Positions 827 through 17,822 of a stretch of 32,000 nt of DNA are shown in pieces. Made by a program: the position numbers and the translations under genes. Source of the stretch: Thermofilum adornatum. GTDB lineage: Archaea; Thermoproteota; Thermoprotei; Thermofilales; Thermofilaceae. The stretch's first letter is position 1. Every line of letters begins with the position of its first letter. The notes under the pieces were generated by a model that was not told the DNA's origin, did no database searches, and worked only from the letters and a program-made list of their open reading frames with translations. The DNA is taken from positions 1,440,001 to 1,472,000 of the forward strand of contig NC_022093.1 of the NCBI RefSeq assembly GCF_000446015.1. Reading direction: 5' to 3'.

Positions 827-830
827 GATA

Positions 831-2759: not shown

Positions 2760-3003
2760 TTTTTGCCTTGGATGTTTGGTTTTTGTGTTTATTTTGTTTT
2801 GTTGGCTGGGTTTTTACTCGTGGGGTGGGTGTATCATTTTTTGGGCTTTTTGTGGCTTTGGCTCGGGCTCTTCGGGATCCTTGCTCGGTGTTCTGCCCGT
2901 GGGGGTCTGGTGTGTGTTTTTCTTTTTGGAGGCGAGGGGTTCGGCTGCAGTTTCTATTGAGAGGGGGCTTAGGGGCGGGTCTTTGACGCTTTTTAGGCAT
3001 AGT

Positions 3004-3390
3004 ATGTATAGGCCTATGCTGTATGTGGATGTTAGGGATGTCGCGCGGGCTTTTAGGGCTTACGCGGTGAGGGTTCTCGACGGGAGGGTCGAGAAGGAGG
3101 GTGGTAGCCTTAGGAGGGTTTTGAATCTCTTCTATCCTGAGCCGTATACTGTGCTGGAGATAGCGGAGATGGTTCGTGACGTTATTAGGGAGGTTACTGG
3201 GGGCGCTTTGGAGCCTAGGATCGAGGTTGTTGACCAGGGCTTGCCTTCGCTGTTTGGGCCGGGGGATAAGTATAGGTTTAGGTTGGATGTTTCGGGGACG
3301 CTGGGCTTCCTTGGGCTAGGGAGGCTGATTAGCCCGAGGGAGTCTATCGAGTATATTGTGAGGAGGAGGCTCGGGAAAGAGACAGGCTAG
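3004..3390 (+). pseudogene. C-terminal fragment of an NAD-dependent epimerase/dehydratase
   Basis: MYRPMLYVDVRDVARAFRAYAV....RVLNL..PEPYTVLEIAEMVRDV resembles the C-terminal substrate-binding half of SDR-type sugar epimerases/dehydratases. The N-terminal Rossmann (GxxGxxG) half is absent. The upstream part of ORF 2746..3390 is only a G+T-rich tract. Confidence 0.6.
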
Positions 3391-4377: not shown

Positions 4378-4806
4378 ATGCTGTGGGGAAGGTTTTTTAA
4401 AAGGCATTGTCATGCTAGGTGTGTGGTTGCTGCTGGGAGGTTTGAGCTGGTTAGTCGTTTGCTTTTCGAGGCTGAGGAGTACCTGGCTAAGGGGGATGCC
4501 GTCCAGTCTTCTGAGAAGCTTTACAAGGTTGCTGAGGAGTGCGTTAAAGCGCTGTCTGAGCGATTGGGTCTCCCCGAGGTGAAGGAAGCCGAGGTGAAGG
4601 GGAGGTGGACGGTTGCTCTGCTTGAGAGAGCTGTGAGGAGGCTGGCCGACGAGTTGGGCGTAGATGTTCAGCTCGGCTGGGATGCGGCGAGTCACCTGCA
4701 TGTGTGGGGGTTCCACGAAGCGAAGCTAGAAGTGGAGGATGTGAAGGCGAGGATTCCCCTGATAAAGCGGCTGGTAGAGTTGGCTGAGAAAACTTGTACA
4801 GAATGA
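4378..4806 (+). CDS. PaREP1-family protein (subtype B)
   Basis: EAEEYLAKGDAVQSSEKLYKVAEECVKAL...GRWTVALLERAV...WDAASHLHVWGFHEAKL aligns along its length with the ORF at 7568..7978. The start is uncertain and internal GTGs are possible. Confidence 0.75.
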   Translation: MLWGRFFKRHCHARCVVAAGRFELVSRLLFEAEEYLAKGDAVQSSEKLYKVAEECVKALSERLGLPEVKEAEVKGRWTVALLERAVRRLADELGVDVQLGWDAASHLHVWGFHEAKLEVEDVKARIPLIKRLVELAEKTCTE

Positions 4807-5359
4807 TGGTGCGCGGCTTTTATATTATCTCTAGCGCGCTAGCCACGCTATCCTCGTGTTGCTCTTACTGTTTAACTCTTGTAAGGGTTCTGATTTTAGG
4901 TTGGTGCGTCTCTTGGCACGATGAATGCGTGTGTGTACAGGACGTTCCCCAACTCTGTTTGCCCCTCAGTGCTCAGCTTGCGCCGAGTACCCGGTGTCTG
5001 GGGGCATAGGACGAGAAGCTGAGTTGCCTAGGGACGCCGCCCTTTAGGGGGCAGAGGCCTTAGCGCATGCTTCCAATAACTACAGCTACTAGAGCCCCAA
5101 AACAATCTAAAAAGCCTGCTACAGCATCTTCACTAAACAAAAAGCCAAGAGGCTAGACGAGTACAGCACAAGCCATTGAAGTGCACGTCTCGACCTAATA
5201 GCTACTCGACAAAAAGCTACGATTTCGAGGTGCTGGCAGTGATCGTCAATTACAACTCGAAGCCCTTCCTAGCAATTGAAAGAATGTTGCTCAAGGGGCT
5301 CGCCGATCTAGAGCGCTACAGCGCACCGGCTTTTGGTTGCTGTTTGATGCTGATAGGTC

Positions 5360-5881
5360 TTGGTTTGGAAGCTCGTTGAAGAGAAGCCTCTGGACGAGGC
5401 TGATGAGGCTAATTTGAGGGAGTTGGCTTGGGCTACGGGCTGGAGTGTTGATGATGTTGTAGATGATTTGAGGAATGGGTGGGGGGATCCTTTGGGTAGG
5501 GTTGATAGGTATAGGGAGATGTTTGAGAGGTACTATAGGGAAGCCTTGGAGCTGGTTGATAGAGATGCTCGGCAGGCGGCTGAAAAGCTTTGGGGCGCTG
5601 TGACGGCTCTGGTGAAGCTCCACGCGTCCCTGAAGAGGGTATTTTTTGCGTGGTGGGACCACGGCAAGCTCTACAACTACGTTACCCATAATGTCGAGGA
5701 GGAGCATAGGGAACTCTTCTATCATCTTCTGATGACGGGCAGGGAGTTGCATAGATACTTCTATGAAGGGGACCTGGACAGAGATACCTTCATTAATTTC
5801 TGGAATAAGGCTGTTAAGCTCCTAGAGGAGGCAAAGGAGGTGGTCTACAGGCTCTCTGCCAAGGCAGTACAAAAAGAGTAA
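5360..5881 (+). CDS. PaREP1-like protein (divergent subtype C)
   Basis: The core is RQAAEKLWGAVTALVKLHA...GRELHRYFYEGDL. It shares the Q-x-x-E-K-x-W-G and L-H-x-x-F-Y-E signatures of the other paralogs. TTG start. The N-terminal roughly 55 aa are unique. Confidence 0.6.
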   Translation: MVWKLVEEKPLDEADEANLRELAWATGWSVDDVVDDLRNGWGDPLGRVDRYREMFERYYREALELVDRDARQAAEKLWGAVTALVKLHASLKRVFFAWWDHGKLYNYVTHNVEEEHRELFYHLLMTGRELHRYFYEGDLDRDTFINFWNKAVKLLEEAKEVVYRLSAKAVQKE

Positions 5882-6034
5882 GCAAGTGTCGCTTGTTCAA
5901 AGTGTCTTCAGCGATCCCTCGGGCGTCTCCTGGAGATGGGGAAAACGTATTAGTGTTTAGTGTCGATGGGGGTTTGAATGTTGGTGACGGGTAGAGGTTT
6001 TAGGAGTGTGAGAGCTCTTTGATTATGGTGGCGT

Positions 6035-6403
6035 GTGAGGTGGGCGGGGAGTGGGCACGTAGGGGTTGAGGCTGTTGTTCGGAACCCGTTTACGGGTAGG
6101 GGCGCGCCTGTTAGGGCTCTTGTGGATGCGGGGGCTATGGACACTGTTATCTCTAGGAAGATTGCTGGAGAGCTTGAACTTCCTGTGACTGGGAAGAGCG
6201 TTGTGTTGACAGCTAGGGGCTCTATGGAGCTTGATGAGTGTATAGGGGTTCTAGAGGTTATGGGTAAGAGGAGGGCAGTGCCTATGTTGGTGTCGGATGA
6301 GATGGATTTTGCACTTTTAGGTGTTACAACGCTTGAGTTGCTGCGTCTCGAAGTAGACCCTACTACGGGTAAGCTTAAGGAAAGCGTGGCGTTTCTGCTC
6401 TAA
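6035..6403 (+). CDS. Retropepsin-like (clan AA) aspartic protease, archaeal AF_0612-like type
   Basis: VRALVDAGAMDTVIS occupies the position of the D-T/S-G-A active-site loop. The C-terminal LLGVTTLELLRLEVDPTTGKL is typical of this small single-domain family. The putative active site reads D-A-G rather than D-T/S-G. Confidence 0.65.
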   Translation: MRWAGSGHVGVEAVVRNPFTGRGAPVRALVDAGAMDTVISRKIAGELELPVTGKSVVLTARGSMELDECIGVLEVMGKRRAVPMLVSDEMDFALLGVTTLELLRLEVDPTTGKLKESVAFLL

Positions 6404-6847
6404 AACAGATTTAAAGGTAGTATGTCTGAGAGTTTGTGTGCTCTTTGGGGGCCGCTTTGAATTGAATGCTTCTTTATGGTGACGCTAGCAAGTAACAAGA
6501 GAGCTTTGACTTTATCTCTGTGTGTTTGTGCAATGTTTGAGACTCGGTTCAGGCTCTTTGAAGCTTCCGAGGTTCGTTGTATATTCTGTATCAAGTGGGC
6601 TACGCTAGTAGCACTTCATTTGTAAATTCATTTATTGAGGGGGTAGCGCGGATGTGGATATATATGATGTGTTTTCCATTTGGGAAGAGTCGTATAGGAG
6701 CTTGTACCGGAATTTTTCCTTTTTGCCGTCTAGCCTGACATGATTATGGGTAGGAGTAGCGTGGATAGTACTTTGTGCGTATATTTGTTGTAGTGCTCCG
6801 CAAGGTTTATAGCACAGGTGTCACTGGGAATATAATAGGGGTTTTCT

Positions 6848-7330
6848 TTGATTGTTCTGCCTAAGAGGATTGCGGAGAAATTGAGGAGGGAATCAGAGAA
6901 GGCTGGCGTTTCCGAGGAGGAATTGGTGGTTGAGGCTTTGTCGAGGATGTTAAATGAGCCGCTCGACCCGGAGGCTAGGTTTGAGGTGCACTTGAAGCTG
7001 TCGGAGAAGTATCTGAGGGATGCAGAGGAGTTGCTGGCTAGGGGTGACTATGTGCAGGCATCTGAGAAGGCCTGGGGCGCCGCGGCCCAGATTGTTAAAG
7101 CTGTGGCGGCAAAGGAGGGGAGGGAGCTCAGGAGTCATGCTGAGCTGTGGGGTTATATGGATGAGCTGGCCGAGAGGGCGGGGGACGTGATGTTGAGGTA
7201 TCTTTGGAGGACCGCGAATGCTCTTCACCAGAACTTTTATGAGGGCTGGATGCCGCCTAGGGAGGTTGAGCTCGCGGTGAGGGATGTTAAAGTGTTTGTT
7301 GAGAAGCTTAGGGCGATAGCGCGCCTGTAG
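6848..7330 (+). CDS. RHH-like N-terminus fused to a PaREP1 domain (subtype A)
   Basis: N-terminus is LPKRIAEKLRRESEKAGVSEEELVVEALSRML (beta-strand and two-helix RHH pattern). The PaREP1 core follows: LKLSEKYLRDAEELLARGDYVQASEKAWGAAAQIVKAVAAKEGRELRSH...LHQNFYEGW. TTG start. Confidence 0.8.
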   Translation: MIVLPKRIAEKLRRESEKAGVSEEELVVEALSRMLNEPLDPEARFEVHLKLSEKYLRDAEELLARGDYVQASEKAWGAAAQIVKAVAAKEGRELRSHAELWGYMDELAERAGDVMLRYLWRTANALHQNFYEGWMPPREVELAVRDVKVFVEKLRAIARL

Positions 7331-7567
7331 GGGTAATGGCGGTTTTAGGTGGGTTGGTCAGTTTGTGCTTATAGAAGGTGCTTCTTCCCTCTTTTGGACT
7401 AGGGGCAATTTGTTTTGGGTGAATTGTTGTTTTAGTGTTTCCCACAAGAACCACTGTTTGAGACGCGTGGCGAAAATAGTAGAGTGGAATGAGGGTGTGC
7501 TTCGACTGAGAAGTGGACATGTTTTGCAGGGTGTGCCCCATGACAAGCTTTTAGGGGCGCTATGTGT

Positions 7568-7978
7568 TTAGTCGTTGTTGCCATAAATGATTTTCCTTGT
7601 TTCAGAGATCATCCTTTCTATGTCTGGCATTCTCTCCTTTACGGCTTCTGAGTCTAGCTTGGCCTCGTGGAAACCCCAGACGTGTAGGTAGTTTGCCCTG
7701 TCCCATGTCGCGCTGAACCAGTCGCCTAGCTTCTTGGATATTCTTGAGACTGCCTTCTCGAGTTCTGTAACTGTCCACCTGCCCCTCTCATCAACAGTTT
7801 TGAGGATGTCTTCCATGTTGAAGCTTATAGCGAGCATCTTGACGGCTTCCTCGGCGGCCTTGTAGAGCTTCTCCGAAGCCTGAACAGGGTCTTTCTCGAT
7901 TAGTGTCTTCCCCTCTTCCAGGTATCTCAATGCGAGGGCGAGGTGGTGCTCAGCTCCAGGCAAGCTTAGTACCCCCAT
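7568..7978 (-). CDS. PaREP1-family protein (subtype B)
   Basis: ATG start. QASEKLYKAAEEAVKML...GRWTVTELEKAV...WDRANYLHVWGFHEAKL. Paralog of 4378..4806. Confidence 0.8.
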   Translation of the reverse strand: MGVLSLPGAEHHLALALRYLEEGKTLIEKDPVQASEKLYKAAEEAVKMLAISFNMEDILKTVDERGRWTVTELEKAVSRISKKLGDWFSATWDRANYLHVWGFHEAKLDSEAVKERMPDIERMISETRKIIYGNND

Positions 7979-8326
7979 GTCCTACCATGTTAATGGCCTA
8001 GATAAATATAAGCCGATAGAAAGAAGAGTTCATGTCGTCGGCACGTGTTTGAATCCTAGGCATTACCAAAAGTGGGTTCAAAGGGCAGGAGGTTGCGCAC
8101 TTTTAGCGAGCACTAAACTTGTTTATAGGGATGGTTTATACCTAAATATATGTAAATTTAAATTTAAATCCATCTTTGTGGTCGAACGCATAAGCTAGAT
8201 CTAGTGTTTTGGCGATTGGTCGTCTCTGGCTTTGAAATAGCGCGCTATAACTGACTAATGTTTCTTATGTTGGGGAAGGGCGCGTTCCTTATATATTTGT
8301 TTTGGGTGGACGGTTTTAGGAGTATA

Positions 8327-8509
8327 ATGTCCGAGGTTGTGGGATTGTTGCAGGAAATAAGGGATGAGCTTAAAGAGCTGAGGCTCCTATATAAAAGTCT
8401 TGTTGATAAACTTGTACCAGAGGAGGAGCCTCTTGAGGACGAGAAAGAGACTATTGAGTCTAGTGATGAAGTGGTAGGGGAGGATGAAGTTTTAAGGGTT
8501 TTTGGATAA
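8327..8509 (+). CDS. Small acidic coiled-coil protein, putative antitoxin of the decayed RelE/ParE-like gene downstream
   Basis: I prefer the ATG at 8327 within ORF 8258..8509. The sequence is MSEVVGLLQEIRDELKELRLLYKSLVDKLVPEEEPLEDEKETIESSDEVVGEDEVLRVFG. Its stop overlaps the ATG of the next frame as TAATG. A TATA-like ttatatattt lies at 8289-8298. The antitoxin role is an inference from context. Confidence 0.4.
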   Translation: MSEVVGLLQEIRDELKELRLLYKSLVDKLVPEEEPLEDEKETIESSDEVVGEDEVLRVFG

Positions 8510-8740
8510 TGTTTCGGCTATAGGCTGAGAGGAGGGTACTGGAATAAATTGAGATGCTTAATCCTTCGGTTAAAGCGAAGATCAAAGAGATACGGCTAAC
8601 AATTAAAAAAGACCCTGTGTCTCATAAGAGGTTTGATTTTTAGATTAGTTAACGAGAAGGAGTGCCGCCTATTCTTAACGGATTTGAGGCATAAAATTAA
8701 TTTTCCAGTACGTGTTATCGCGTTAGGATTGCTGTTTCTT
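8509..8740 (+). pseudogene. Decayed RelE/ParE-like toxin
   Basis: The frame from the ATG at 8509 reads MFRL*AERRVLE*IEMLNPSVKAKIKEIRLTIKKDPVSHKRFDF*. A shifted frame then gives LVNEKECRLFLTDLRHK. This resembles the RelE/ParE layout (Y.L.fs..A.k.l.kL......i...i..l..dP ... R.iY.v... i.hR) but is broken by at least 2 in-frame stops and a frameshift. Confidence 0.4.
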
Positions 8741-8745
8741 CGTGG

Positions 8746-9204
8746 CTAGAGGTAGCCGTGGGTAGGCGAGTATACGTGTAGTTCTTTTAGGCTGTATCTC
8801 GCAGATATTTGTCTCCATTTGTTCTTTATTTTCTTCCAGTCTTTTAGGTCTTCAGTGACTATGGTGTCGGCTCCAGAAGATATGGCTAGGGCAGCGTGTA
8901 GGGAATCATATGTGACGCGCGCAGTGCGAGCTATTTCTCGTGCTAACTCTAGTGCTTCTAGGGAGGGTTCTATTAGCTTTATGGGGAGTGAAAGATATGC
9001 GAGTGAAGTTTCGTATGCTGCATCAACGCTATATTTGGAGAGAGCTCCAAATAACTCGAAGAGTACTAGTTTTGATCCGTAAGCTTCGAAATCTCCTGAG
9101 ACGAGAGCTTCGAGTACATCGTGACACTTCGCGTAATAGTCTGGGAGTCTTGTTGCAACATAAATGAAGATGTTTGTGTCAATGTATACCTGCTTCCCTG
9201 TCAA
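8746..9204 (-). CDS. vapC: PIN-domain ribonuclease toxin VapC
   Basis: VYIDTNIFIY (first acidic residue), LFELF, TYDSLHAA and IVTEDLKDWKKI together give the PIN acidic quartet pattern. It overlaps the upstream AbrB-type gene by 26 nt. TTG start. Confidence 0.85.
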   Translation of the reverse strand: MTGKQVYIDTNIFIYVATRLPDYYAKCHDVLEALVSGDFEAYGSKLVLFELFGALSKYSVDAAYETSLAYLSLPIKLIEPSLEALELAREIARTARVTYDSLHAALAISSGADTIVTEDLKDWKKIKNKWRQISARYSLKELHVYSPTHGYL

Positions 9205-9433
9205 GGGACTCTTCGACTAGTCTCACCGCGTTTATACGCCTCGGCCCAGCGAGGTAGCGGTCGGCTATGCTTTCGAGCCTTTCCAACGCTTCTCTGTATT
9301 TGATGGGCTGGAGGATTATTGCTCCTTTTTCTATTCTTACCATGAAGCGGTCTCCAGGCTTGATACCTAGTTTCTCTCTCACTTCCTCTGGTATCTCGAC
9401 TTTGAAGTCGCTTGTCACTATAACTTCTTTCAC
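9179..9433 (-). CDS. vapB: AbrB/SpoVT-type antitoxin VapB
   Basis: SDFKVEIPEEVREKLGIKPGDRFMVRIEKGAIILQPI is a SpoVT/AbrB swapped-hairpin motif. The gene lies directly upstream of vapC and overlaps it. Confidence 0.85.
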   Translation of the reverse strand: MKEVIVTSDFKVEIPEEVREKLGIKPGDRFMVRIEKGAIILQPIKYREALERLESIADRYLAGPRRINAVRLVEESLDREAGIH

Positions 9434-9579
9434 GATTTGAAACTTGGTTTATTAGCTTACTTAAGTTTTCTCGTAGAAATTCAAAGACTGGGTACACTAC
9501 TCTTGTAAAGACTCGATGGAACAGAAGTGCGACAAGAAACGTTGCATGCTTCACATTTCTATACGCGTTCGGGAAGCAC

Positions 9580-9660
9580 AAGCCGGATATAAGTTGCGAG
9601 TCTCACTTGAAGCTCTCTGAGAAGTATTTGGGGACCGAAAAATTTCTACCTGGGGAGCGT
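9580..9660 (+). pseudogene. PaREP1 (subtype A) internal remnant
   Basis: KPDISCESHLKLSEKYLGTEKFLPGER aligns with DPDTSCELHLKLSEKYLREAEEFLARGD of the copy at 15356..15823, and the similarity is also visible at nucleotide level. No N-terminal or C-terminal part remains. It ends a few nt before the hicB ORF. Confidence 0.55.
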
Positions 9661-9728
9661 CAGTGTCTCTTTTATTGATTAGCTTCATCACAAAATTATT
9701 AAATCAATTTGCATTCATGATTTTTAGT

Positions 9729-9947
9729 ATGGCTAGAAAGTTGAGGTTTACTATTATTTTGAGGAGGGAGGAGGAGGGCGGGTATTCTGCTCAGTGTTTG
9801 GAGTTGCCTGGATGTATTAGTGAGGGTGAGACTAGGGAGGAGGCACTTGAAAACATAAAGGAAGCTATCAGGGGCTATCTTGAGGCTTTCCCGGAGGAGG
9901 CAGAGAAACTAAAAGAAGAGAAGGAGCTGGTCGAGATAGTTGTCTAG
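9729..9947 (+). CDS. hicB: HicB-family antitoxin (UPF0150 fold)
   Basis: RFTIILRREEEGGYSAQCLELPGCISEGETREEALENIKEAIRGYLE is the classic HicB N-terminal domain. I prefer the ATG at 9729 within ORF 9663..9947. It overlaps hicA by 8 nt. Confidence 0.85.
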   Translation: MARKLRFTIILRREEEGGYSAQCLELPGCISEGETREEALENIKEAIRGYLEAFPEEAEKLKEEKELVEIVV

Positions 9948-10164
9948 TAAACTCCCAATACTGTCTTGGCGAGAGGTTGTTAAGGCATTAAAGAAGGTTG
10001 GTTTTCGAATAGTCTATCAGAAGGGCAGTCACTTATACTTAACAGATGGTAAGCATAAACTCACTGTTCCTAGGCATGATGCCTTAAAGAGGGGCACCCT
10101 TCTCGCTATCATATATCAAGCTGGCCTAACAAAGGAGGAGTTCCTGAGGCTTTTAAGGGATTAG
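9940..10164 (+). CDS. hicA: HicA mRNA interferase toxin
   Basis: SWREVVKALKKVGFRIVYQKGSHLYLTDGKHKLTVPRHDALKRGTLLAIIYQAGLTKEEF carries the YcfA/HicA signature (..GSH.....g....t.P.H..l..gtl..I..qagl). Confidence 0.85.
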   Translation: MSSKLPILSWREVVKALKKVGFRIVYQKGSHLYLTDGKHKLTVPRHDALKRGTLLAIIYQAGLTKEEFLRLLRD

Positions 10165-10221
10165 GTTTTTTGTTCCAACTCGATGAGTGTTGTCAATTCA
10201 TAGATTACAAACGGCACGTGC

Positions 10222-10452
10222 TTAGCGCCAAGCTTCCCGTACCTTATCCAGCTCCCTTGTGAGCTCCTCGTAGGCTTCTCGGCCGACCGGCTGGCCGGGT
10301 TCTGGGAGATCGATTTTCTCAAGAATTACTTTGTCGTCTTCTTCCCAGACTGCCAGGATGTCGCCCTCTTTTATTCCTAGGGCTTTGCGGATTGGCAGGG
10401 GGATGGTGACTTGGCCCTTACGTGTGACCTTCACGTGGGTCTTGGGTCTCAT
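10222..10452 (-). CDS. Solo AbrB/SpoVT-family antitoxin-like DNA-binding protein
   Basis: VKVTRKGQVTIPLPIRKALGIKEGDILAVWEEDDKVILEKI is a SpoVT/AbrB motif. No toxin ORF follows on this strand, because the hicA stop lies 58 nt away. Confidence 0.8.
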   Translation of the reverse strand: MRPKTHVKVTRKGQVTIPLPIRKALGIKEGDILAVWEEDDKVILEKIDLPEPGQPVGREAYEELTRELDKVREAWR

Positions 10453-10517
10453 CCGCGGGAATAGCTCTTAGTGCTACTTTTTTAACTTTTTGTCATCTTG
10501 GTACGGATCTTGGTCAT

Positions 10518-10868
10518 CGGCGTTTCTGGGTTCTTCACTAGAGCGCTTAGGGAGCCGGCCTTGTCGCGTTGTCGGAGGAACTTGTGCTTCCCGTGATTGG
10601 GAAGAGGCTGTTTTTTGACCGCGGGTGTTCTGCGGAGCTTGATGAATATGTGGGGGTTGTGGAGGTTATAGGTAGGCAGTTTCATACCCATGTGCTTGTT
10701 TATGACGTGCTAGATGTTGTGTTGATAGGTTTGACGGTCCTCGAGATCCTGAGTTTCGAAGTGGATCCGGTTACGGGGAAGCTTAGAAAAGGAAAGATAT
10801 ACTTGCCCATAGGGCTGGATAGCTGGGGACCCGCTATTGTTATTGTGGGGCTTCTTGTTCCTGTGTGA
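10518..10868 (+). pseudogene. Decayed paralog of the retropepsin-like protease
   Basis: The frame reads ..VLH*SA*GAGLVALSEELVLPVIGKRLFFDRGCSAELDEYVGVVEVIGRQFHTHVLVYDVLDVVLIGLTVLEILSFEVDPVTGKLRKG. It is collinear with 6035..6403 (..LVDAGAMDTVISRKIAGELELPVTGK...ELDECIGVLEVMGK...LLGVTTLELLRLEVDPTTGKLKE). Two in-frame stops fall in and around the active-site loop. Confidence 0.6.
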
Positions 10869-11328
10869 GTAGTGTTCTCAGTTTTCCTATGAGTTTGAGG
10901 GTTTGCTGTCTGTGTGCTTCGAAGTTGAGTGGGGATAGGAAGTTGCGGTAGTAGTTTGCGTGTAGGCGTTCTGTGTTTGCGAAGAGTGGCCCGAGGGGCT
11001 CTTTTAGCTGTTCGGAGAGCTTCTCCACAATGTCTGCGTAGTCCCTGTGGCTGTAATGCGGCCATTTTCTCTTCTCGGCGATGGCGTTGAGGAGGGCTGC
11101 TGTGGCTCCCCAGTATTTTTCTCCTGACTGTGGGAGGTAGCCCTTCTTGTAGAGTTCCTCGGCTTCGACGAGATACTTTTCGAAGAGCTCTAGATATTTT
11201 CTGGTTCCAGTTTTCGGAGATGTTGTATTGTTCTCCTTGCTCGCCATGTTTTTCTTAGCGTTATCTCCAGCTTCTCTAGGATGAGTAAAACTCTCTTGTT
11301 CTTTAATCGTTCTACCATTGACAGCCAT
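10840..11328 (-). CDS. PaREP1-like protein (divergent subtype C)
   Basis: FEKYLVEAEELYKKGYLPQSGEKYWGATAALLNAIAEKR...RLHANYYRNF. The start may be the ATG at 11328 or the internal ATG at 11247. A TATA-like tttttattag lies upstream of 11328 on the minus strand. Confidence 0.7.
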   Translation of the reverse strand: MAVNGRTIKEQESFTHPREAGDNAKKNMASKENNTTSPKTGTRKYLELFEKYLVEAEELYKKGYLPQSGEKYWGATAALLNAIAEKRKWPHYSHRDYADIVEKLSEQLKEPLGPLFANTERLHANYYRNFLSPLNFEAHRQQTLKLIGKLRTLLTQEQEAPQ

Positions 11329-11529
11329 TTTTACGCTCTACAAATTTTGATGTTTCCTCTAATAAAAACCTTTGAGTTATATTTTGGCAATAGGAATATT
11401 GCTCTGCTTGTTGAAATCAATGAATGCATGCATGTGTTAGCGTCGCGCGCCGCCTGTAAGTAAGACACTAGGTACGGCTAGTAAGACTTTTTAAAAGGCT
11501 GAGAAGTTTTTAAATAAGGGGAGTAAAAT

Positions 11530-11766
11530 TTGTCTGAAATACTGGTATTGTTTGATGAGTATGATAAGAACTGGTCATGGTTTATGGAGCACTATGAAGA
11601 GCTTGCCGAAAGGTTTGATGGAGAATTTGTTGCCATATACCAGCAAAGGGTTGTAGACCATGAGAAGGATATTGGCTCTCTGATGAAGAGGATTAGGAAG
11701 AAGTACCCTTTAGGCCAAGTCCTTGTGGAGTTTGTTAGTAAAGAGAAATTAGCCTTTATAATCTGA
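11530..11766 (+). CDS. DUF5678-like small protein
   Basis: NWSWFMEHYEELAERFDGEFVAIYQQRVVDHEKDIGSLMKRIRKKYP..VLVEFV matches the DUF5678 pattern as I recall it (W...n...L...y.G.wVAi.dg.Vv.........l). TTG start. A TATA-like tttttaaataagg lies just upstream. Confidence 0.55.
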   Translation: MSEILVLFDEYDKNWSWFMEHYEELAERFDGEFVAIYQQRVVDHEKDIGSLMKRIRKKYPLGQVLVEFVSKEKLAFII

Positions 11767-11873
11767 GGGTTGTCTGTAGTAGTGTTGCATGATGAACACA
11801 TAGGCTCACATGGTGCGAGTTTCGGATTTTAAAAGAGTTTACCGAGATATTTATTTGCTTTCTCCAAGTAATT

Positions 11874-12146
11874 ATGCGTGTGCGGAGGAAGATTAGTGTG
11901 TATGTTGATGTGGAGCTTTGGGAGAGGTTTAAGAAGTACGCTGAGGAGAGAGATGCGGGGGCTAGTAGGCTTTTGGAGGAGCTGATACGGGAGGAGCTCG
12001 GGGACTATGTTGACGAGGCTCTTGGCGCGCTGGCCGGCTCAGATAGCTACGAGCTAGGCTTTGATCCTGTGGAGCCTAAGGGTCCAGTGAGCCTGTTTGT
12101 TAGGGAGACGAGGGATGAGAGAGAGCGTGGCCTGCTTGGACAATAA
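11874..12146 (+). CDS. Ribbon-helix-helix (CopG-like) antitoxin-type protein
   Basis: KISVYVDVELWERFKKYAEERDAGASRLLEELIREEL is an RHH pattern. The C-terminal tail FDPVEPKGPVSLFVRETRDERE resembles toxin-wrapping tails of archaeal RHH VapB antitoxins. No intact toxin follows. Confidence 0.6.
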   Translation: MRVRRKISVYVDVELWERFKKYAEERDAGASRLLEELIREELGDYVDEALGALAGSDSYELGFDPVEPKGPVSLFVRETRDERERGLLGQ

Positions 12147-12251
12147 GACAGTGTATTTGGGTTCGGGTCTATGTAGCTGTGACGGCGTTATGTGATTTAA
12201 GCCTGTTTTTGTTAATCTTTATCTTAGGGCTGTTGACTGTGATTCCACAAG

Positions 12252-12260
12252 TTTTATAAG
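12252..12260 (+). promoter_or_regulatory. TATA box for the ATPase gene
   Basis: ttttataag is centred 27 nt upstream of the ATG at 12283, the canonical archaeal spacing for a leaderless transcript. Confidence 0.4.
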
Positions 12261-12282
12261 GGCTTGTGGATTTATATTCCAC

Positions 12283-13518
12283 ATGGGTTTCCTTAGAGAG
12301 ATAACTGAGGAGTACCTGGGGGCGCTTAGGTATGTGAAGGAGGTTCCGAGGGACGTGGAGCTTCCCGTTGGTAGGGATATTGTTGCGCTTGTTGGGCCGA
12401 GGAGGGCTGGAAAGACGTTTTTGATGTTGAGGCATGCTAAGGACTTGCTGGACTCTGGGAAGCAGGCCCTCTACGTTTCGTTTGACGAGTTTCAGTTTCG
12501 AGGGATTGATGCTAGGAAGCTTGCCGAGATGGCTAGAGAGGAGTATCCTAGTGGCGAGGTCTACTTGTTTCTTGACGAGGTTCAGGAGTGGGAGGGCTGG
12601 GACAGCAAGCTTCGCTGGCTACATGACGTGAAGGATTTCTTTTTGTATGTTACTGGGTCTTCGTCTGTTCTTCAGTCTTCTGAGATTCCGAGCAGGCTTA
12701 GGGGGCGTTATGTTTCTGTTCTTCTTCTCCCTTTTTCGTTTCGGGAGGTTTCTCGACAGGAGAAAGTTGACGTTGTAACTTTTAGGGAGAGGGGTGCTAT
12801 TAGGGCACTGCTCAACGATTACATGACGTGGGGAGGCTTTCCTGAGGTTTGGATTTATAGGAGTAGGGAGAAGCTTGTCTCCCTGCTGGAGACGATGTTC
12901 TATAGGGATGTGATGGAGAGGCATAGGGTAAGGGATACCGCTGTTTTCTTGGAGGTTGCACGTCTCGTTATCTCTAGCTATTCGTGTCCTGTGACGTGGC
13001 ACTCGATTCGCAGGGCTTTGAAGTCTTCCGGGGTCAATATTGATGTGAAGACTGTTATGAGCTATGTGGAGTACATGAGGCAGGCCTACCTGGTTTTTCT
13101 CGTCAAGAGGTTCACGTATTCTGATAGGGAGGCCTTGGCGGCGCCTAAAAAGATATACCTCGTGGATCCGGGCATAGCCACGCTCCTAGAGAAGCCAATG
13201 GACAAGGGTAGGAGGGCTGAGAACCTTGTCTTCCTGGAGCTCGTGAGGAGGGGATACGAGCCGTACTACTATGTAACGAGGAGCGGCAAGGAGGTTGACT
13301 TCGTAACGAAAAAGGAAAAAATGATTGTCGAGGTTGCTCTAGAGGACTGGGAGAAACATGTCGGAAAGGTTGCTGAAGCCGCGAGGGAGCTGGGGGTCAA
13401 CGAGGCCACGATAATTACATGGGATGCAGAGGGAGAAGAAAAGGTTGGGAACCGCAGGGTAACAATAGTTCCTCTATGGAAGTGGTTGCTCCAAGAAACA
13501 ACAAAAAACAAACCATAG
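12283..13518 (+). CDS. AAA-type ATPase with DUF4143-like C-terminal domain
   Basis: Walker A is VGPRRAGKTFLM and Walker B is YLFLDEVQ. The overall 411-aa layout is an N-terminal P-loop domain followed by a C-terminal nuclease-fold-like DUF4143 region (..IYLVDPGI.. ..EVDFV..). This architecture is common in archaeal accessory regions. Confidence 0.8.
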   Translation: MGFLREITEEYLGALRYVKEVPRDVELPVGRDIVALVGPRRAGKTFLMLRHAKDLLDSGKQALYVSFDEFQFRGIDARKLAEMAREEYPSGEVYLFLDEVQEWEGWDSKLRWLHDVKDFFLYVTGSSSVLQSSEIPSRLRGRYVSVLLLPFSFREVSRQEKVDVVTFRERGAIRALLNDYMTWGGFPEVWIYRSREKLVSLLETMFYRDVMERHRVRDTAVFLEVARLVISSYSCPVTWHSIRRALKSSGVNIDVKTVMSYVEYMRQAYLVFLVKRFTYSDREALAAPKKIYLVDPGIATLLEKPMDKGRRAENLVFLELVRRGYEPYYYVTRSGKEVDFVTKKEKMIVEVALEDWEKHVGKVAEAARELGVNEATIITWDAEGEEKVGNRRVTIVPLWKWLLQETTKNKP

Positions 13519-13632
13519 TTCACAGAACGGTTCTCATTATAGCGCGCGGTTTTGTACGTGTTTGACACACTAGCATGTAAGTACTGTGAAACTCTTGGAT
13601 AATACTAGGTCGACAAGCTTTATAACGAAAGG

Positions 13633-14130
13633 GTGGTGGTATTGGAGCTGGAGCTTGTTTTGTCCAGGGAGATTAAGAAAAAGCTTGGGGAAGTGTCTGT
13701 GAAGATGGAGATCAGTATTGAGGGGCTCGCCTTGGATGCATTCAAGGGAATGAATGAAGGGATGGATCCTGCCGAGAGGGCAGAACTATATTTAAGGCTC
13801 TCTGAGAAGTATCTCAAGGACGGAGAGGAGCTGTTAGCTAAGGGGGACTGTGTTCAGGCTTCTGAGAAGCTTTGGGGCTCGGCGGCGCTTATGGTTAAGG
13901 CTCTTGCGGCTAGTAGGAGTGTCTCGGTCTCTTCTCATGGCGAGCTATTTAGCTATGTTAGGAGGCTGGGCGAAGAGCTGGGGAGCCCCGAGCTCAGGAG
14001 GCTCTTCTCTGTGGCTAGCACGTTGCACCAGAATTTCTATGAGAATTGGCTGAGTGGGGACGTTGTAAGAGAGTACGCGGAGGACGTGAAGCAGTTAGTT
14101 TGGGAGCTCAAGAAGCTGGTAAGATTCTAG
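13633..14130 (+). CDS. RHH-like N-terminus fused to a PaREP1 domain (subtype A)
   Basis: N-terminus is VVVLELELVLSREIKKKLGEVSVKMEISIEGLALDAF. The core is LRLSEKYLKDGEELLAKGDCVQASEKLWGSAALMVKALAA...LHQNFYENWL. GTG start whose exact position is uncertain. Confidence 0.8.
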   Translation: MVVLELELVLSREIKKKLGEVSVKMEISIEGLALDAFKGMNEGMDPAERAELYLRLSEKYLKDGEELLAKGDCVQASEKLWGSAALMVKALAASRSVSVSSHGELFSYVRRLGEELGSPELRRLFSVASTLHQNFYENWLSGDVVREYAEDVKQLVWELKKLVRF

Positions 14131-14248
14131 CGCTGTTTATTCCCGCTGGAAGATATTCTTCGAGCAGTCCTTCCCACATGACTTTAAGATAGACTTTACC
14201 CAGTCCCGAAGCGTTTTTTTGATTGCTATGTATTCATTGAGAATGACT

Positions 14249-14488
14249 TTACTCTCTCTTGGCCCAAAACTTTTCCTCTTCTCTATCCAGTTCTTCCTCT
14301 GCTTCTTCGGCACTGCCCTGACAGCACTTCCATACTCTTCCCCAGAGGTCAAATGGCTCCAGCAGGATTTTGCCGTTTTCGACCCTTAGTTCTAGGAGGG
14401 TTCCTTCATCGATGCTAAGCATTTCTCTTATTCTCTTCGGTATAACAATGATACCCCTTTTATGTACCTTGATTATTGCCTTTTCCAT
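14249..14488 (-). CDS. Solo AbrB/SpoVT-family antitoxin-like protein
   Basis: IKVHKRGIIVIPKRIREMLSIDEGTLLELRVENGKILLEP is a SpoVT/AbrB motif, followed by an acidic C-terminal tail. No recognisable intact toxin lies downstream. Confidence 0.75.
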   Translation of the reverse strand: MEKAIIKVHKRGIIVIPKRIREMLSIDEGTLLELRVENGKILLEPFDLWGRVWKCCQGSAEEAEEELDREEEKFWAKRE

Positions 14489-14737
14489 ATTACATCAACT
14501 CGTTGCTGGGGCTGACTTATAGCTTTAACCCTAAGTTGGATATGCGAGTTACTGGAATGGGTTCAAGCGCTGTTTTTAGATCAGAATTAAGTGGCTCAGT
14601 TGGGGACGAAAAGTAGGACTCCTTCGGGTTTCCCTTCTCTTTACAAAGTTGATTCTAGTGGTCCCTTTTTTTGGGTTTTTCCTAGGTTAAGTTTTTCGTC
14701 AGGAGGTAGTCGTGGTACCTAGGGATTTATTTGTTTG

Positions 14738-14748
14738 AAGCTTTATAA
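14738..14748 (+). promoter_or_regulatory. TATA-like box (aagctttataa) upstream of the PaREP1 gene
   Basis: It is centred about 27-29 nt upstream of the GTG at 14772. An identical 11-mer, aagctttataa, occurs at 13615-13625 upstream of the paralog at 13633, though with different spacing. Confidence 0.35.
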
Positions 14749-14847
14749 GTTAGAGTGATATTTCTATAACTGTGGAAAATGTAGTTTCGTTGGAGCTGTT
14801 TTTGCCTAAACGTATTGCTGAAAGGCTGAAAAAGGGAGTCCGAGAGG

Positions 14848-15276
14848 GTGGGAGCGTCAGAGGAGGAGCTTTTAGTTGAGGTTTTGTCGGAGAGGTTTGG
14901 TGAGCATATCGACCCAGCATCAGAAGTCGAGATGCATTTGAGGTTGTCAGAAAAGGAGCTCATGGAGGCGGAGGAGCTTCTGAGGAAAGGAGACTATTTA
15001 CAGGCGTCCGAAAAGGCATGGGGAGCCGCGGCCCAAATGGTTAAAGCCGTGGCGGCAAGGGAGGGGAGAACGATCAGGAGCCACGGTGAACTGCAACGGG
15101 AGGTTGCGAGGATCGTCAAGGAGACGGGAGACGAGGAGCTGAGAAGGCTTTGGCAGTCCGCCGGGATGCTTCACCAGAACTTCTACGAGAACTGGCTTCC
15201 ACAAGAAATGGTTGAAGGGAACATTAGGGACGTAAAAAGGTTTATCGAGAAGCTGAGACAGCTTTTGAATTATTAG
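14848..15276 (+). CDS. PaREP1 domain protein (subtype A) whose RHH-like N-terminus is disrupted by a frameshift
   Basis: The core is MHLRLSEKELMEAEELLRKGDYLQASEKAWGAAAQMVKAVAAREGRTIRSH...LHQNFYENWL. The homologous N-terminus (VENVVSLELFLPKRIAERLK) starts at GTG 14772 in another frame. The two frames join if one A is removed from the A5 run at 14829-14833. Confidence 0.75.
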   Translation: MGASEEELLVEVLSERFGEHIDPASEVEMHLRLSEKELMEAEELLRKGDYLQASEKAWGAAAQMVKAVAAREGRTIRSHGELQREVARIVKETGDEELRRLWQSAGMLHQNFYENWLPQEMVEGNIRDVKRFIEKLRQLLNY

Positions 15277-15355
15277 CGCGCGCTCGCGCTAACTTGATGC
15301 TTAACACTTATATTGGGCTCAGCAGGAACATATACTATGGGTTTTTTTCATTGAT

Positions 15356-15823
15356 TTGCCTAGGAGGCTTGAAGAAAGGATAAGGAAGGAGTCTGAGAAG
15401 AGGGGTGTGTCAGAGGATGAGCTTGTTGTGAAGCTCTTGTCAGAGGCTCTTGGGGAGAGTCTTGATCCCGATACAAGTTGTGAGTTGCATTTGAAGCTCT
15501 CTGAGAAATATTTGAGGGAGGCAGAGGAATTCCTGGCTAGGGGTGACTATATGCAGGCATCTGAGAGGGCTTGGGGTGCAGCAGCTCAGATTGTTAAGGC
15601 GCTAGCCGCTAAGGAAGGGAGAGAGCTTAGGAGTCATGGGGAGTTGCATCGGTATGTCTCGAAGCTTAGCAGTGAGATGGATGATAGGGAGATATCGAGG
15701 CTCTGGCTCTCTGCTGTGTCTCTTCACCAGAATTTTTACGAGAATTGGCTTCCCGGGGAAATTGTTGAGGAGGGAGTAGAGAGTCTCAAGGAGTTTGTGG
15801 AAAAGTTGAGGAAGCTTTTGTAA
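15356..15823 (+). CDS. RHH-like N-terminus fused to a PaREP1 domain (subtype A)
   Basis: N-terminus is LPRRLEERIRKESEKRGVSEDELVVKLLSEAL. The core is LHLKLSEKYLREAEEFLARGDYMQASERAWGAAAQIVKALAAKEGRELRSH...LHQNFYENWL. TTG start. Confidence 0.8.
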   Translation: MPRRLEERIRKESEKRGVSEDELVVKLLSEALGESLDPDTSCELHLKLSEKYLREAEEFLARGDYMQASERAWGAAAQIVKALAAKEGRELRSHGELHRYVSKLSSEMDDREISRLWLSAVSLHQNFYENWLPGEIVEEGVESLKEFVEKLRKLL

Positions 15824-15879: not shown

Positions 15880-15990
15880 GCTTTGAACTTTCTTGGTAGC
15901 CTTGTTCGAAAGGAGGAGCCTCTCGAAGATGAAAGGAAGGCTATAGAGTCTGGAGATGAGCTAGTCGGGAGGATGAGATTTTTAGGGTTC
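15880..15990 (+). pseudogene. Remnant of a second copy of the small acidic antitoxin-like gene (paralog of 8327..8509)
   Basis: ALNFLGSLVRKEEPLEDERKAIESGDELVGRMRFLGF aligns with ELRLLYKSLVDKLVPEEEPLEDEKETIESSDEVVGEDEVLRVFG, including nucleotide-level similarity. There is a frameshift near the end and no proper start. The ORF track fuses it artificially to the MNT gene (15883..16380). Confidence 0.45.
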
Positions 15991-16080
15991 TCAGATAAAG
16001 TTTTGGCGAGTGGTGGGATGCGGGTTGCTCGGTTTAGCAGAAAACATATATGGATCTCCAAATGTAACTTCTTTGGAAAC

Positions 16081-16380
16081 ATGGAGGACATAAAGAAGAT
16101 TATTGTCCCAGTATTGCGGCGCTATGGTGTGAGGAGAGCGGCTGTTTTTGGGTCTTTTGCTCGTGGGGAGGCTAGGGAGGATAGCGACTTGGATATTATT
16201 GTTGAATTTGAGGAGGGTAGGAGCTTGCTGGACTTGGCTGGCTTAAAGGTTGAGCTAGAGGATGTTCTCGGCAGGAGAGTGGACATTGTTACGTATGGTT
16301 CCCTGCACCCACTTCTTAGGGAAAGAGTTCTTAAGGAGGAAAAGAGGATACTATGGGGAAAGACCCGAAAACAACCTTAG
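16081..16380 (+). CDS. Minimal nucleotidyltransferase (MNT / MntA-type antitoxin)
   Basis: I prefer the ATG at 16081 within ORF 15883..16380. AAVFGSFARGEAREDSDLDIIVEF carries the GSxxRG...DxD pol-beta-type nucleotidyltransferase signature. The roughly 100-aa size is typical of MNT antitoxins. Confidence 0.8.
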   Translation: MEDIKKIIVPVLRRYGVRRAAVFGSFARGEAREDSDLDIIVEFEEGRSLLDLAGLKVELEDVLGRRVDIVTYGSLHPLLRERVLKEEKRILWGKTRKQP

Positions 16381-16434: not shown

Positions 16435-16719
16435 ATGATTAAGAAAAAGCTTGTCTTCACTAAACACGCAAGGGAAGCTATCGTTAAAAGGGAGCTTGAT
16501 GCAGAGTCAATACTTAATGCTATTCTAGCTCCAGATGAACTCTTCTGGGATAGGCGTTCAGGTTGCATGGTGGCTATTAAGAAAGACGACCTAGCACTTA
16601 TTGTTGTTTATGAGGTGACAAATGAAAAATTCAGAGTGGTTACAGCATTTAAATCATCCAAGTTAGTTAAACTTATTAGGAGCAAGCTTAGCAAAGGATT
16701 CTGGGTAAAGATTCAATGA
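16435..16719 (+). CDS. DUF4258-like toxin-type protein
   Basis: LVFTKHAREAIVKRELDAESILNAILAPDE....LALIVVYEVTNEKFRVVTAF matches the DUF4258 pattern (i.fT.HA...m..R.i....i...l......). It overlaps the next gene in an ATGA junction. Confidence 0.65.
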   Translation: MIKKKLVFTKHAREAIVKRELDAESILNAILAPDELFWDRRSGCMVAIKKDDLALIVVYEVTNEKFRVVTAFKSSKLVKLIRSKLSKGFWVKIQ

Positions 16720-16958
16720 GGGTGAGGTACGACAAAAGACACGATATACTTTATATCGATGTCGCCCCGGGCAAGAAGGCACGCGAGACACAGCCATTGA
16801 ACGATGATATCTTTGTGGATCTCGATGAGGAGGGGAACATTGTGGGTATAGAGATTTGGAACGCCTCCGAGAACATTGTAGAGGCGCTTGCGGAGCCACT
16901 GATAGAGAAGGTGAAGAAATCGCTTGAAAAATCTGTCATGGCAGGAAAAGGTTCATAG
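16716..16958 (+). CDS. DUF2283-like antitoxin-type protein
   Basis: MRVRYDKRHDILYIDVAPGKKARETQPLNDDIFVDLDEEGNIVGIEIWNASE is the characteristic DUF2283 pattern (YD...D.LYI.........i.vD.d..G.ivGIEI..AS). Confidence 0.7.
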   Translation: MRVRYDKRHDILYIDVAPGKKARETQPLNDDIFVDLDEEGNIVGIEIWNASENIVEALAEPLIEKVKKSLEKSVMAGKGS

Positions 16959-17381: not shown

Positions 17382-17822
17382 TTGTCTTCGGGCTTGGGTA
17401 GTTGGAGGGAGGGCCTCGAAGAGCTCATAAAGTTGCTGGAGGACACGTGTAGCAGTATGGGTAGCCTTAATGCTGACAAGCTCTTGGAAATCCTGGGTCT
17501 CGTGGGTAGGTTGGAGAGAATGCTTGAAACGGGGTCTCAGCAGGCTTTGGGGTCTGGCGGCCCTGCTAAAGGAAGCTTGGAGAGTGACGGCTTGCTTTTG
17601 ATCAGGGAATACGTCAAGGAGGCTGTCTATAGGTTTTCGGCTGGCGACGACGCTGGGAGTGTTCTGGCCGAGGCTCTGAGTGTCGCAAATGCTTTGCGGG
17701 ATCTAGGCGCGCTTGCTGAGAGGGGGGTAGAAATTATACGTCCCAAGGATCTGGTGGTTGTAGGGTATATCGATGGGAAGCCGGTCTACTCGTTTAGGCA
17801 GGGAAATAGTCCTAATAGATAA
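17382..17822 (+). CDS. Hypothetical protein (acidic, predicted helical), no family recognised
   Basis: A 146-codon ORF with a TTG start; an alternative ATG lies at 17455. Codon composition resembles neighbouring genes. Its 3-prime end overlaps the next ORF by 50 nt. Confidence 0.4.
   Translation: MSSGLGSWREGLEELIKLLEDTCSSMGSLNADKLLEILGLVGRLERMLETGSQQALGSGGPAKGSLESDGLLLIREYVKEAVYRFSAGDDAGSVLAEALSVANALRDLGALAERGVEIIRPKDLVVVGYIDGKPVYSFRQGNSPNR

Follow-up and report, generated by a model that had tools for sequence, protein, structure and literature searches.

A 32,000-nucleotide stretch of the Thermofilum adornatum genome (NC_022093.1, positions 1,440,001 to 1,472,000; called the window in the following) carries eight genes of the PaREP1 family and one remnant. 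We propose that such a gene is a self-contained, conditionally active one-gene module, combining a regulator with a latent RNase or RNA binder, and not a classical toxin, and we give this proposal about an even chance of being correct. The architecture of the proteins, their conserved polar set, the autonomy of the genes, purifying selection, and gain and loss at the level of whole cassettes are directly supported. According to the proposal the PaREP1 protein would dimerise through both of its domains. The paired ribbon-helix-helix (RHH) segments would form a DNA-binding ribbon that probably represses the gene's own or other promoters, and the paired HEPN domains would present E73/K74 and H127, together with Q70, H97, N129, Y131 and E132, as a variant, arginine-less HEPN site that would bind and probably cleave RNA. 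A role in conflict or addiction, a previously published hypothesis, is plausible and is favoured by strain-level loss, spread across lineages and decay by frameshift. Copies are named after their first coordinate and residues are numbered as in the 6848 copy.

The eight PaREP1 open reading frames (ORFs) reported in a preliminary description of this DNA were all recovered exactly where it had placed them. Together with the remnant they are:

4378-4806, + strand: PaREP1 of subtype B without RHH, 142 aa; PF05942 E 9.9e-34; GRWTV and LHVWGFHEAKL present
5360-5881, + strand: divergent PaREP1 with a helix-helix N-terminus; PF05942 E 1.4e-16
6848-7330, + strand: RHH-PaREP1 of subtype A, 160 aa; PF05942 E 4.1e-28; PF05168 23.8 bits against a cutoff of 22
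7568-7978, - strand: PaREP1 of subtype B without RHH, 136 aa; PF05942 E 9.8e-34; own TATA box
9583-9633, + strand: PaREP1 remnant, 51 nt, about 17 aa (..SCESHLKLSEKYLG..), 84% nucleotide identity to 15467-15517
10840-11328, - strand: divergent PaREP1; PF05942 E 2.4e-21; inside the 1.24-kb segment 10604-11840
13633-14130, + strand: RHH-PaREP1 of subtype A, 165 aa; PF05942 E 2.2e-26; AAGCTTTATAA box about 20 nt upstream
14781-15276, + strand: frameshifted RHH-PaREP1 of subtype A; PF05942 E 1.7e-28; the intact ORF 14848-15276 covers the HEPN part only
15356-15823, + strand: RHH-PaREP1 of subtype A, 155 aa; PF05942 E 6.4e-29; PF05168 23.3 bits

All eight copies match PF05942 (PaREP1/PaREP8), the family to which they had been assigned, with 60.9-116.2 bits (E 1e-16 to 1e-34) at a Pfam gathering cutoff of 24.4 bits. 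The two motifs derived by hand, Q[AS][SAG]E[KR].[WY][GK] and LH.[NWY][FGY][YF][EHR], each gave exactly eight matches in the six-frame translation, one per copy, and the nucleotide stretch described as common to the 6848 and 15356 copies is a 34-mer at 7034-7067 and 15533-15566; across 320 nt these two copies show 75.6% nucleotide identity. A hidden Markov model (HMM) built from the eight copies and run against the six-frame translation of the whole 32 kb detected no copy beyond the eight and the remnant, so that the cluster is confined to 4.4-15.8 kb. The remnant had been placed at 9580-9660; it exists, with a weak 20-residue match to the HMM (E 0.013), but its actual span is the narrower one given above.

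Three subtypes had been distinguished, of which A (45-63% pairwise identity) and B (43% between the 4378 and 7568 copies) stand. We reject subtype C because its two members are only 24% identical and no closer to each other than to the remaining copies; they are two singletons. That the copies are diverged and not recent duplicates agrees with pS values of 0.63-0.74 (saturated) within subtype A. The 5360 copy is 43-56% identical to the C-terminal 160 aa of four proteins of 245-282 aa (P0149, P0151, P0166, P0208). Its upstream region shows no homology to the N-termini of this longer lineage in any frame, and a stop codon directly precedes its start; it is a short form of a lineage that usually bears about 100 extra N-terminal residues. 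The true start of the 10840 copy is probably an internal Met (MASKENN..). The 14848 copy has a homolog of 92% nucleotide and 93% amino acid identity on a contig labelled Archaeoglobales (L023), relative to which a 1-nt insertion near 14835 breaks its RHH frame; it is a damaged RHH-PaREP1 gene with an ancestral start at about 14781. The 7568 copy is 88-90% identical to Thermofilum proteins and has 1227 homologs. Many of these homologs have 157-172 aa and a beta-alpha-alpha start (e.g. MLTITIPSKIAEELARRGIDAETYIIDLLSRNL), and subtype B is thus not intrinsically RHH-less.

The preliminary description had placed PaREP1 in the HEPN/KNTase_C clan, and both sequence and structure comparisons back this: of the four subtype A copies three score above the cutoff of PF05168, and a model of the 6848 protein matches HEPN structures. 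PaREP1 is also listed in CL0291 in the reviewer exchange of PMC3710099. The model, calculated with AlphaFold2 from the single sequence, has a mean pLDDT of 85, rising above 90 across residues 41-158, which form five helices; the N-terminus is an extended segment followed by two short helices, 6-19 and 23-36. In a Foldseek search against the PDB the top rank was taken by 2Q00, a structural-genomics entry of a Sulfolobus PaREP1 protein (TM score 0.77 normalised to the target), and the other leading matches were the HEPN proteins AF0298 (2HSB), ST0689 (1WOL), TT1696 (1UFB) and TM0613 (1O3U), the leading matches as a whole having TM scores of 0.67-0.82, likewise normalised to the target. Sacsin HEPN, AMPylated HepT (7AE6) and MntA-HepT complexes followed at lower ranks. 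By sequence the only solved relative is 2JPU/2Q00 (profile E 3.1e-19), and profile searches of the PDB with PaREP1 reached no HEPN entry except 2JPU. As modelled, the helical domain of PaREP1 is a HEPN bundle.

The N-terminus of subtype A had been called RHH-like, and a profile of 39 such domains indeed matches the RHH proteins CopG (1B01/2CPG, E 0.0027), AvtR, VapB26, Arc and MazE6; the designed repeat proteins that head its PDB list are low-complexity artefacts. When the 39 members were scanned singly, RHH_1 was matched by 15, the FitA-like RHH by 12 and RHH_5 by nine, the N-terminal domains of the window proteins staying below the Pfam thresholds. A conserved Asp-Pro marks the junction between RHH and HEPN and is most simply explained as a helix N-cap.

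Next to the fold, the proposal draws on a conserved polar site. In the eight-way alignment of the window copies Q70, E73, L126 and H127 are invariant. Among 91 family members, comprising the window copies and genomic loci and biased towards subtype A, E73 is present in 91, K74 in 89, H127 in 88, W76 in 87, Q70 in 86, K84 in 85, F130 in 84, D67 and E132 in 82 each, H97 in 81 and Y131 in 80. The part of PMC3710099 that treats the HEPN-T (Parep1/8) group describes a motif in which the His is conserved and the Arg lost, with other conserved basic residues as possible substitutes, and a general HEPN signature that includes an upstream acidic residue in an Ex3[KR]-type motif. The sequences examined here show the same features: H127 is kept in all eight window copies, and the upstream acidic residue is E73, followed by K74 in 89 of the 91 members, with subtype B reading E-K-L-Y-K, i.e. 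Ex3K. The equation of H127 with the His of the HEPN motif is made on the authority of PMC3710099; a profile-profile alignment of PaREP1 with the HepT domain encoded in the window itself gave no signal (probability 0.2).

The third line of evidence is the autonomy of the gene. The preliminary description had derived a conflict role from the toxin-antitoxin (TA) genes nearby, but this guilt by association does not generalise across loci from other genomes. Of 72 loci with a called PaREP1 ORF, 64 show no second copy in the 6 kb to either side; clusters occur in Caldivirga (six copies), Pelearchaeum (four) and a Dehalococcoidia genome (four in tandem). Clustering of the 408 ORFs located within 2.5 kb revealed no conserved partner; the most widespread group of homologs, an ABC ATPase, is present at six of about 72 loci. 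A Pfam scan of 114 immediate neighbours gave no family more than three times (MNT, PIN and Asp_protease_2, three each), the small same-strand ORFs flanking the genes are mutually unrelated, and a search for an RNA partner gave no Rfam match and no relevant tandem repeat. A conserved two-gene TA operon is thus not seen for PaREP1. The neighbouring copies 4378/5360 and 6848/7568 raised the possibility that an RHH-less subtype B protein pairs with an RHH-bearing copy, which we rejected: subtype B homologs are solitary in four independent contexts, beside complex I, enolase, TenA or radical-SAM genes, and many have an RHH of their own. At 57 loci TATA-like boxes are concentrated 30-59 nt upstream of the RHH strand. 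In the window, three of the four subtype A copies have a clear B recognition element (BRE)/TATA-like box of their own, at about 35 nt upstream in the 6848 copy, and a weaker one precedes the 15356 copy. The PaREP1 unit is a self-contained single gene, and being surrounded by many TA genes characterises this island and similar crenarchaeal ones but not the family in general.

Two of the small ORFs that had been considered as partners turned out to be antisense tRNA-Glu. On two Nitrososphaerota-type contigs of metagenome-assembled genomes (MAGs) a tRNA-Glu(TTC) lies 170-190 nt downstream of RHH-PaREP1 on the opposite strand (L002:6653-6729, L011:4069-4145), and this neighbourhood may mark an integration hot spot.

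These observations bear on how the HEPN domain could act. It is not a constitutively active toxin held by a neighbouring antitoxin, because no conserved partner exists and the RHH-less solitary copies keep the residues of the site; the coexistence of eight copies without cognate antitoxins likewise argues against constitutive toxicity. An effector that is latent or activated only under certain conditions would fit better, and so would a pure binder.

Several results weigh against the proposed module. An Arg four to six residues before the His, as in the Rx4-6H motif, is present in only 25 of the 91 members and in two of the eight window copies (6848 and 7568). Several double-domain relatives have R, E or W in place of the His, so that catalysis is not universal and may be absent. 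The literature yielded no experimental study of the activity of any PaREP1 protein. The N-terminus of the 6848 copy alone matched no RHH model at E<0.1. In a crude test inverted repeats were not enriched upstream of 57 RHH-PaREP1 genes (4.81 versus 4.90 in shuffles), and because this search for operator palindromes was negative autoregulation remains an assumption. PaREP1 was absent from IMG/VR viral contigs (searched for subtypes A and B), PLSDB plasmids and the phage and virus records of GenBank in INPHARED, and four PaREP1 copies gave no significant match to the PADLOC 2.0 defence models; with PaREP1 missing from viral, plasmid and PADLOC collections, nothing ties it directly to defence.

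Part of this evidence favours a different explanation, in which the proteins are non-catalytic regulators: RHH-PaREP1 would be a DNA-binding transcription factor whose bundle only dimerises or senses a ligand, a nucleotide or a protein, and the RHH-less copies would be modulators or decoys, with neither RNase activity nor toxicity. The unconserved Arg and the replaced His would be expected of such proteins, and antitoxin-less solitary copies among housekeeping genes as well as eight copies in one genome without cognate antitoxins point the same way. The HEPN-T clade, as PMC3710099 delimits it in its discussion of the family, also includes substrate-binding non-nuclease domains of nucleotidyltransferases. 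However, the near-invariance of E73, K74, H127, Q70, H97, Y131 and E132 across phyla exceeds the needs of a dimerisation scaffold, the RHH was lost repeatedly with the HEPN residues kept, which argues for a function of the bundle itself, and operator-like palindromes were not found upstream of the 57 genes. We regard purely regulatory proteins as possible, although doubtful. The double-domain relatives were also considered as a probe for a composite active site and discarded, since the two halves do not retain the motifs consistently: some halves still have the His and Glu, others carry R, E, W or K at these positions, and no regular pattern emerges.

A second alternative starts from the gene that follows the 15356 copy:

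16081-16380, + strand: minimal nucleotidyltransferase (MNT) without a HepT/DUF86 partner of its own; NTP_transf_2 E 6.4e-18; downstream of the 15356 copy

Here PaREP1 would be the HEPN half of a HEPN-MNT (type VII-like) TA system, controlled by this MNT or by another one elsewhere, for instance by AMPylation of a Tyr near the His. That an intact MNT lacking a HepT partner follows PaREP1 fits this idea, and the order PaREP1-then-MNT recurs in L023 and L084/L085. Y131, four residues past H127, is present in 80 of the 91 members, and the AMPylated HEPN toxin 7AE6 and the MntA-HepT complexes are among the weaker Foldseek matches. Parep operons with MNT are listed by Anantharaman et al. 2013, in the passages of PMC3710099 on the family. 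Against this, an MNT is found in just three of the 114 immediate neighbours and beside only one of the eight window copies, where it starts about 250 nt from the PaREP1 gene, and neither the gene order nor the gaps of 60-250 nt are those of the MNT-then-HEPN operons, in which the genes overlap. Makarova et al. 2009 and 2013 state that the family lacks an association with MNT (PMC2701414, PMC3632139). The sequence around the His, LHQNFYE or LHVWGFHE, differs from RX4HXY as well: it has no Arg, and subtype A has the Tyr at H+4, in place of which subtype B has a His. In HepT the RX4HXY motif contains the AMPylatable Tyr. Taken together, PaREP1 and HepT/MntA (type VII TA; 7AE6, 6M6U) share the HEPN bundle, a catalytically placed His and occasionally an adjacent MNT, but PaREP1 is without RX4HXY and the conserved Arg, has an MNT next to it in about 3% of cases with other order and spacing, and carries a predicted DNA-binding RHH, which HepT is without. 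The MNT at 16081-16380 is a possible but unproven partner of PaREP1, and a HEPN-MNT system as the explanation for the family seems to us quite unlikely.

The one-gene module has a more specific version, in which RHH-PaREP1 would be a fused addiction or abortive-infection module: its Arg-less HEPN RNase, built on H127 with E73/K74, would be kept latent by the DNA-bound RHH or by trans-acting MNTs, and a stress or infection signal would release it, possibly by heat-labile cleavage at the Asp-Pro junction. In this detailed form we think the idea unlikely; if it were true, it would explain both the missing antitoxin of paREP1/8 and the piling up of diverse lineages in one island.

The island did not arise by local tandem duplication, which is ruled out by a best-hit analysis and by saturated dS. 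For all eight copies the best foreign match is better than the best paralog in the window; the values for subtype A are:

13633 copy: best foreign match 73% (Caldivirga, L013), best window paralog 47%
6848 copy: best foreign match 67-71% (Ignisphaera, Thermofilales and Geocrenenecus MAGs), best window paralog 62%
15356 copy: best foreign match 69%, best window paralog 62%
14848 copy: best foreign match 93% (L023), best window paralog 62%

Since the neighbours of a copy are always less similar to it than genes from other genomes, the island has collected distinct PaREP1 lineages and has not duplicated one gene. L023 shares synteny with the window over 14.4-17.3 kb, and its 93% match is not counted as a transfer between phyla, as the contig may come from a mis-binned relative. 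Within subtype A dS is saturated and dN/dS is 0.10-0.27; these genes are old and under purifying selection.

Comparison with L001, a metagenomic strain variant (Logan ERR14373512), shows how the island changes. The two sequences are 98.5-99.6% identical and differ only by whole cassettes. In L001 the segment 9515-9720, which holds the remnant, is replaced by a 1.39-kb cassette encoding a 210-aa protein and a ParE-like gene, and the HicA segment 9956-10224 is replaced as well, a different 65-aa gene taking its place. The 1.24 kb from 10604 to 11840, with an Asp-protease-like fragment, the 10840 PaREP1 copy and DUF5678, are missing. An insertion with target-site duplication is ruled out for this difference: L001 still has 36 nt from the start of the neighbouring ORF, and no direct repeat exceeds 7 nt, so that the segment was deleted in L001. 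Individual copies are lost by frameshift, truncation and deletion.

Such losses could be taken to mean that the cluster is passive repeat debris, i.e. locally duplicated, decaying paralogs without a current function: one remnant, one frameshifted and one 5'-short copy are present, and one copy is deleted in the sister strain. Yet dN/dS is low at saturated dS, Q70, E73, L126 and H127 are kept in all eight copies, the nearest relative of each copy is a foreign gene and not a neighbour, copies have promoters of their own, and the nucleotide sequences of six PaREP1 genes agree 100% between L001 and the window. Debris is therefore largely refuted and highly improbable as an explanation.

An HMM search run exhaustively over 1.84 billion representatives returned 2653 clusters at E <= 1e-3, or 1177 if the limit is set to E <= 1e-10. 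Subtype A has 268 relatives in a scan of one genome per species, found in Archaea (Thermoproteota, Bathyarchaeia, Nitrososphaerota, Methanomethylicota, ANME-1 and Alkanophaga) and in bacterial MAGs or chromosomes (Chloroflexota, Planctomycetota and Latescibacterota). The architectures comprise standalone proteins of 115-130 aa, RHH fusions of 155-175 aa, tandem double domains and forms with a long N-terminus. Among unusual members (P0134, P0123, P0125, P0130, P0139) are a single dCTP-deaminase-like fusion and covalent double PaREP1 proteins. The Dehalococcoidia chromosome carries its four tandem PaREP1 genes, all RHH-less, with 32-nt spacers (L081:4828-6396), Caldivirga sp. MU80 (L013) has its six copies within 8 kb, and PaREP1 also occurs in MAGs of Planctomycetota (Scalindua) and Latescibacterota, beyond the archaeal and thermophile range of the 2013 papers.

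Earlier publications have described the family with its fold, the clustering of its genes and a suspected role in conflict, and the preliminary finding is a correct reading of a known phenomenon. Makarova et al. 2009 defined paREP1 as a subfamily of RHH-HEPN fusions, expanded in Thermoproteales and without MNT operons (PMC2701414), and Makarova et al. 2013 asked if paREP1/8 are toxins with an unidentified antitoxin (PMC3632139). Anantharaman et al. 2013, where PMC3710099 deals with the family, place Parep1/8 in the HEPN-T clade, give its motif variant, mention tandem arrays or MNT/REase neighbours and cite 2Q00. The genome paper on Pyrobaculum oguniense located paREP1/8 genes in strain-variable regions (PMC3558965). 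With PaREP1/PaREP8 as known (PF05942, HEPN-T(Parep1/8), 2Q00/2JPU from S. solfataricus) the window copies share the model match, the kept His and lost Arg, the RHH fusion, the clustering, an expansion of the Thermoproteales type and the strain-variable location (PMC2701414, PMC3632139, PMC3710099, PMC3558965), and we see no essential difference. What the present analysis adds is incremental: the Thermofilum instance, the accumulation of lineages, a quantified absence of partners and the decay states of the copies. It also widens the range past the "Archaea/thermophiles" of 2013 to Bathyarchaeia, ANME-1, Methanomethylicota, bacterial MAGs (Chloroflexota, Planctomycetota) and mesophilic bacteria.

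PaREP1/8 is among the largest expanded families of hyperthermophilic Crenarchaeota, and whether its members are toxins whose antitoxin has escaped identification has been asked explicitly since 2013. With type II TA systems that use RHH antitoxins (CopG/Arc-type: ParD, FitA, VapB, RelB) PaREP1 has in common the N-terminal RHH, the location in TA islands, patchiness and horizontal spread. Those systems, however, are two-gene operons, whereas PaREP1 is one gene with the RHH fused to the presumed effector and not to a neutralising tail. Fused TA systems of the CapRel type hold a regulatory and an effector domain in one chain and have no separate antitoxin; they share this concept with PaREP1, the folds being unrelated, and serve as an analogy only. 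PaREP1 is not known to be toxic, to respond to an activating trigger or to be linked to phages. We argue that a self-contained or trans-regulated module is the better frame for the family: the classical two-gene TA system is the wrong one, because no partner is conserved, the genes have promoters of their own, the site persists in solitary copies without an RHH, and members occur even in mesophilic bacteria. The island offers a compact natural test set, with three intact RHH-fused copies, two RHH-less ones, one with a frameshifted RHH, one followed by an MNT, and a sister strain without one of the copies.

The region from 4.4 to 15.8 kb is the core of a strain-variable TA/defence island that is bordered on both sides by glycosylation genes; no tRNA and no integrase-like ORF were seen in this setting. 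The statement that every PaREP1 copy is interleaved among TA genes was too strong, as no TA gene separates the two members of the pairs 4378/5360, 6848/7568 and 14848/15356. Overall the island is nevertheless rich in TA genes: it contains PIN/AbrB and HicB/HicA pairs, two orphan AbrB genes, an RHH protein, DUF5678, an AAA_14/DUF4143 ATPase, the MNT, a DUF4258/DUF2283 pair and a HepT-MNT fusion. The assigned neighbours within the cluster are:

8746-9433, - strand: VapC(PIN)/VapB(AbrB); Pfam PIN 4.9e-13, MazE_antitoxin 6.8e-8
9663-10164, + strand: HicB/HicA; Pfam HicB_lk 2e-9, HicA 2.1e-17
10222-10452, - strand: orphan AbrB; Pfam MazE_antitoxin 1.9e-10
11530-13518, + strand: DUF5678, RHH protein and AAA_14+DUF4143 ATPase, the latter a PADLOC candidate (PDC-S01)

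The ATPase (12283-13518, + strand) matches the candidate single-gene defence system PDC-S01 with E 3.5e-92 and is preceded by the small RHH gene at 11874-12146. Downstream of the MNT, DUF4258 (16435-16719) and DUF2283 (16716-16958), both on the + strand, overlap by 4 nt and look like a TA pair, with about 82% nucleotide identity in L023. Two overlapping + strand ORFs (17382-17822 and 17773-18333; 146 and 186 aa) without a Pfam or PADLOC match lie between the TA genes and the HepT-MNT fusion. The latter (18429-19292, + strand) encodes a 287-aa protein with an N-terminal HepT-like HEPN domain (RTGNLLAHAY) and a C-terminal MNT, a fusion of toxin and antitoxin domains in the order HEPN-then-MNT.

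Two other kinds of genes adjoin PaREP1 copies in the window. Retropepsin-like aspartyl protease genes (Asp_protease_2) are found at 6035-6403 and 10569-10868, both on the + strand, as one intact copy and one degraded paralog with 67.6% nucleotide identity; at foreign loci they make up three of the 114 immediate neighbours, one of them 26 nt upstream of PaREP1 in an Anaerolineae MAG (L079:5651-6028). The ORF at 8258-8509 (+ strand) encodes 83 aa, begins with a coiled coil, ends in an acidic tail (EEPLEDEKETIESSDEVVGEDEVLRVFG) and has no significant Pfam match. Its 3' half recurs as a 74%-identical remnant at 15890-16007 (+ strand), where it directly follows the 15356 copy and is fused in frame to the front of the MNT ORF, so that the ORF and its remnant each adjoin a PaREP1 gene.

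In the left flank an 87-aa N-terminal piece resembling a dehydrogenase was read by eye at 789-1052 (+ strand), and the C-terminal half of a 214-aa ORF without a Pfam match at 2746-3390 (+ strand) looks, again by eye, like the tail of an epimerase. These apparent fragments of sugar-nucleotide enzymes suggest gene decay at the island border. The GC skew of the + strand is 0.12-0.39 per kb over the first 20 kb and about 0 thereafter, coinciding with the location of nearly all genes on the + strand in that part.

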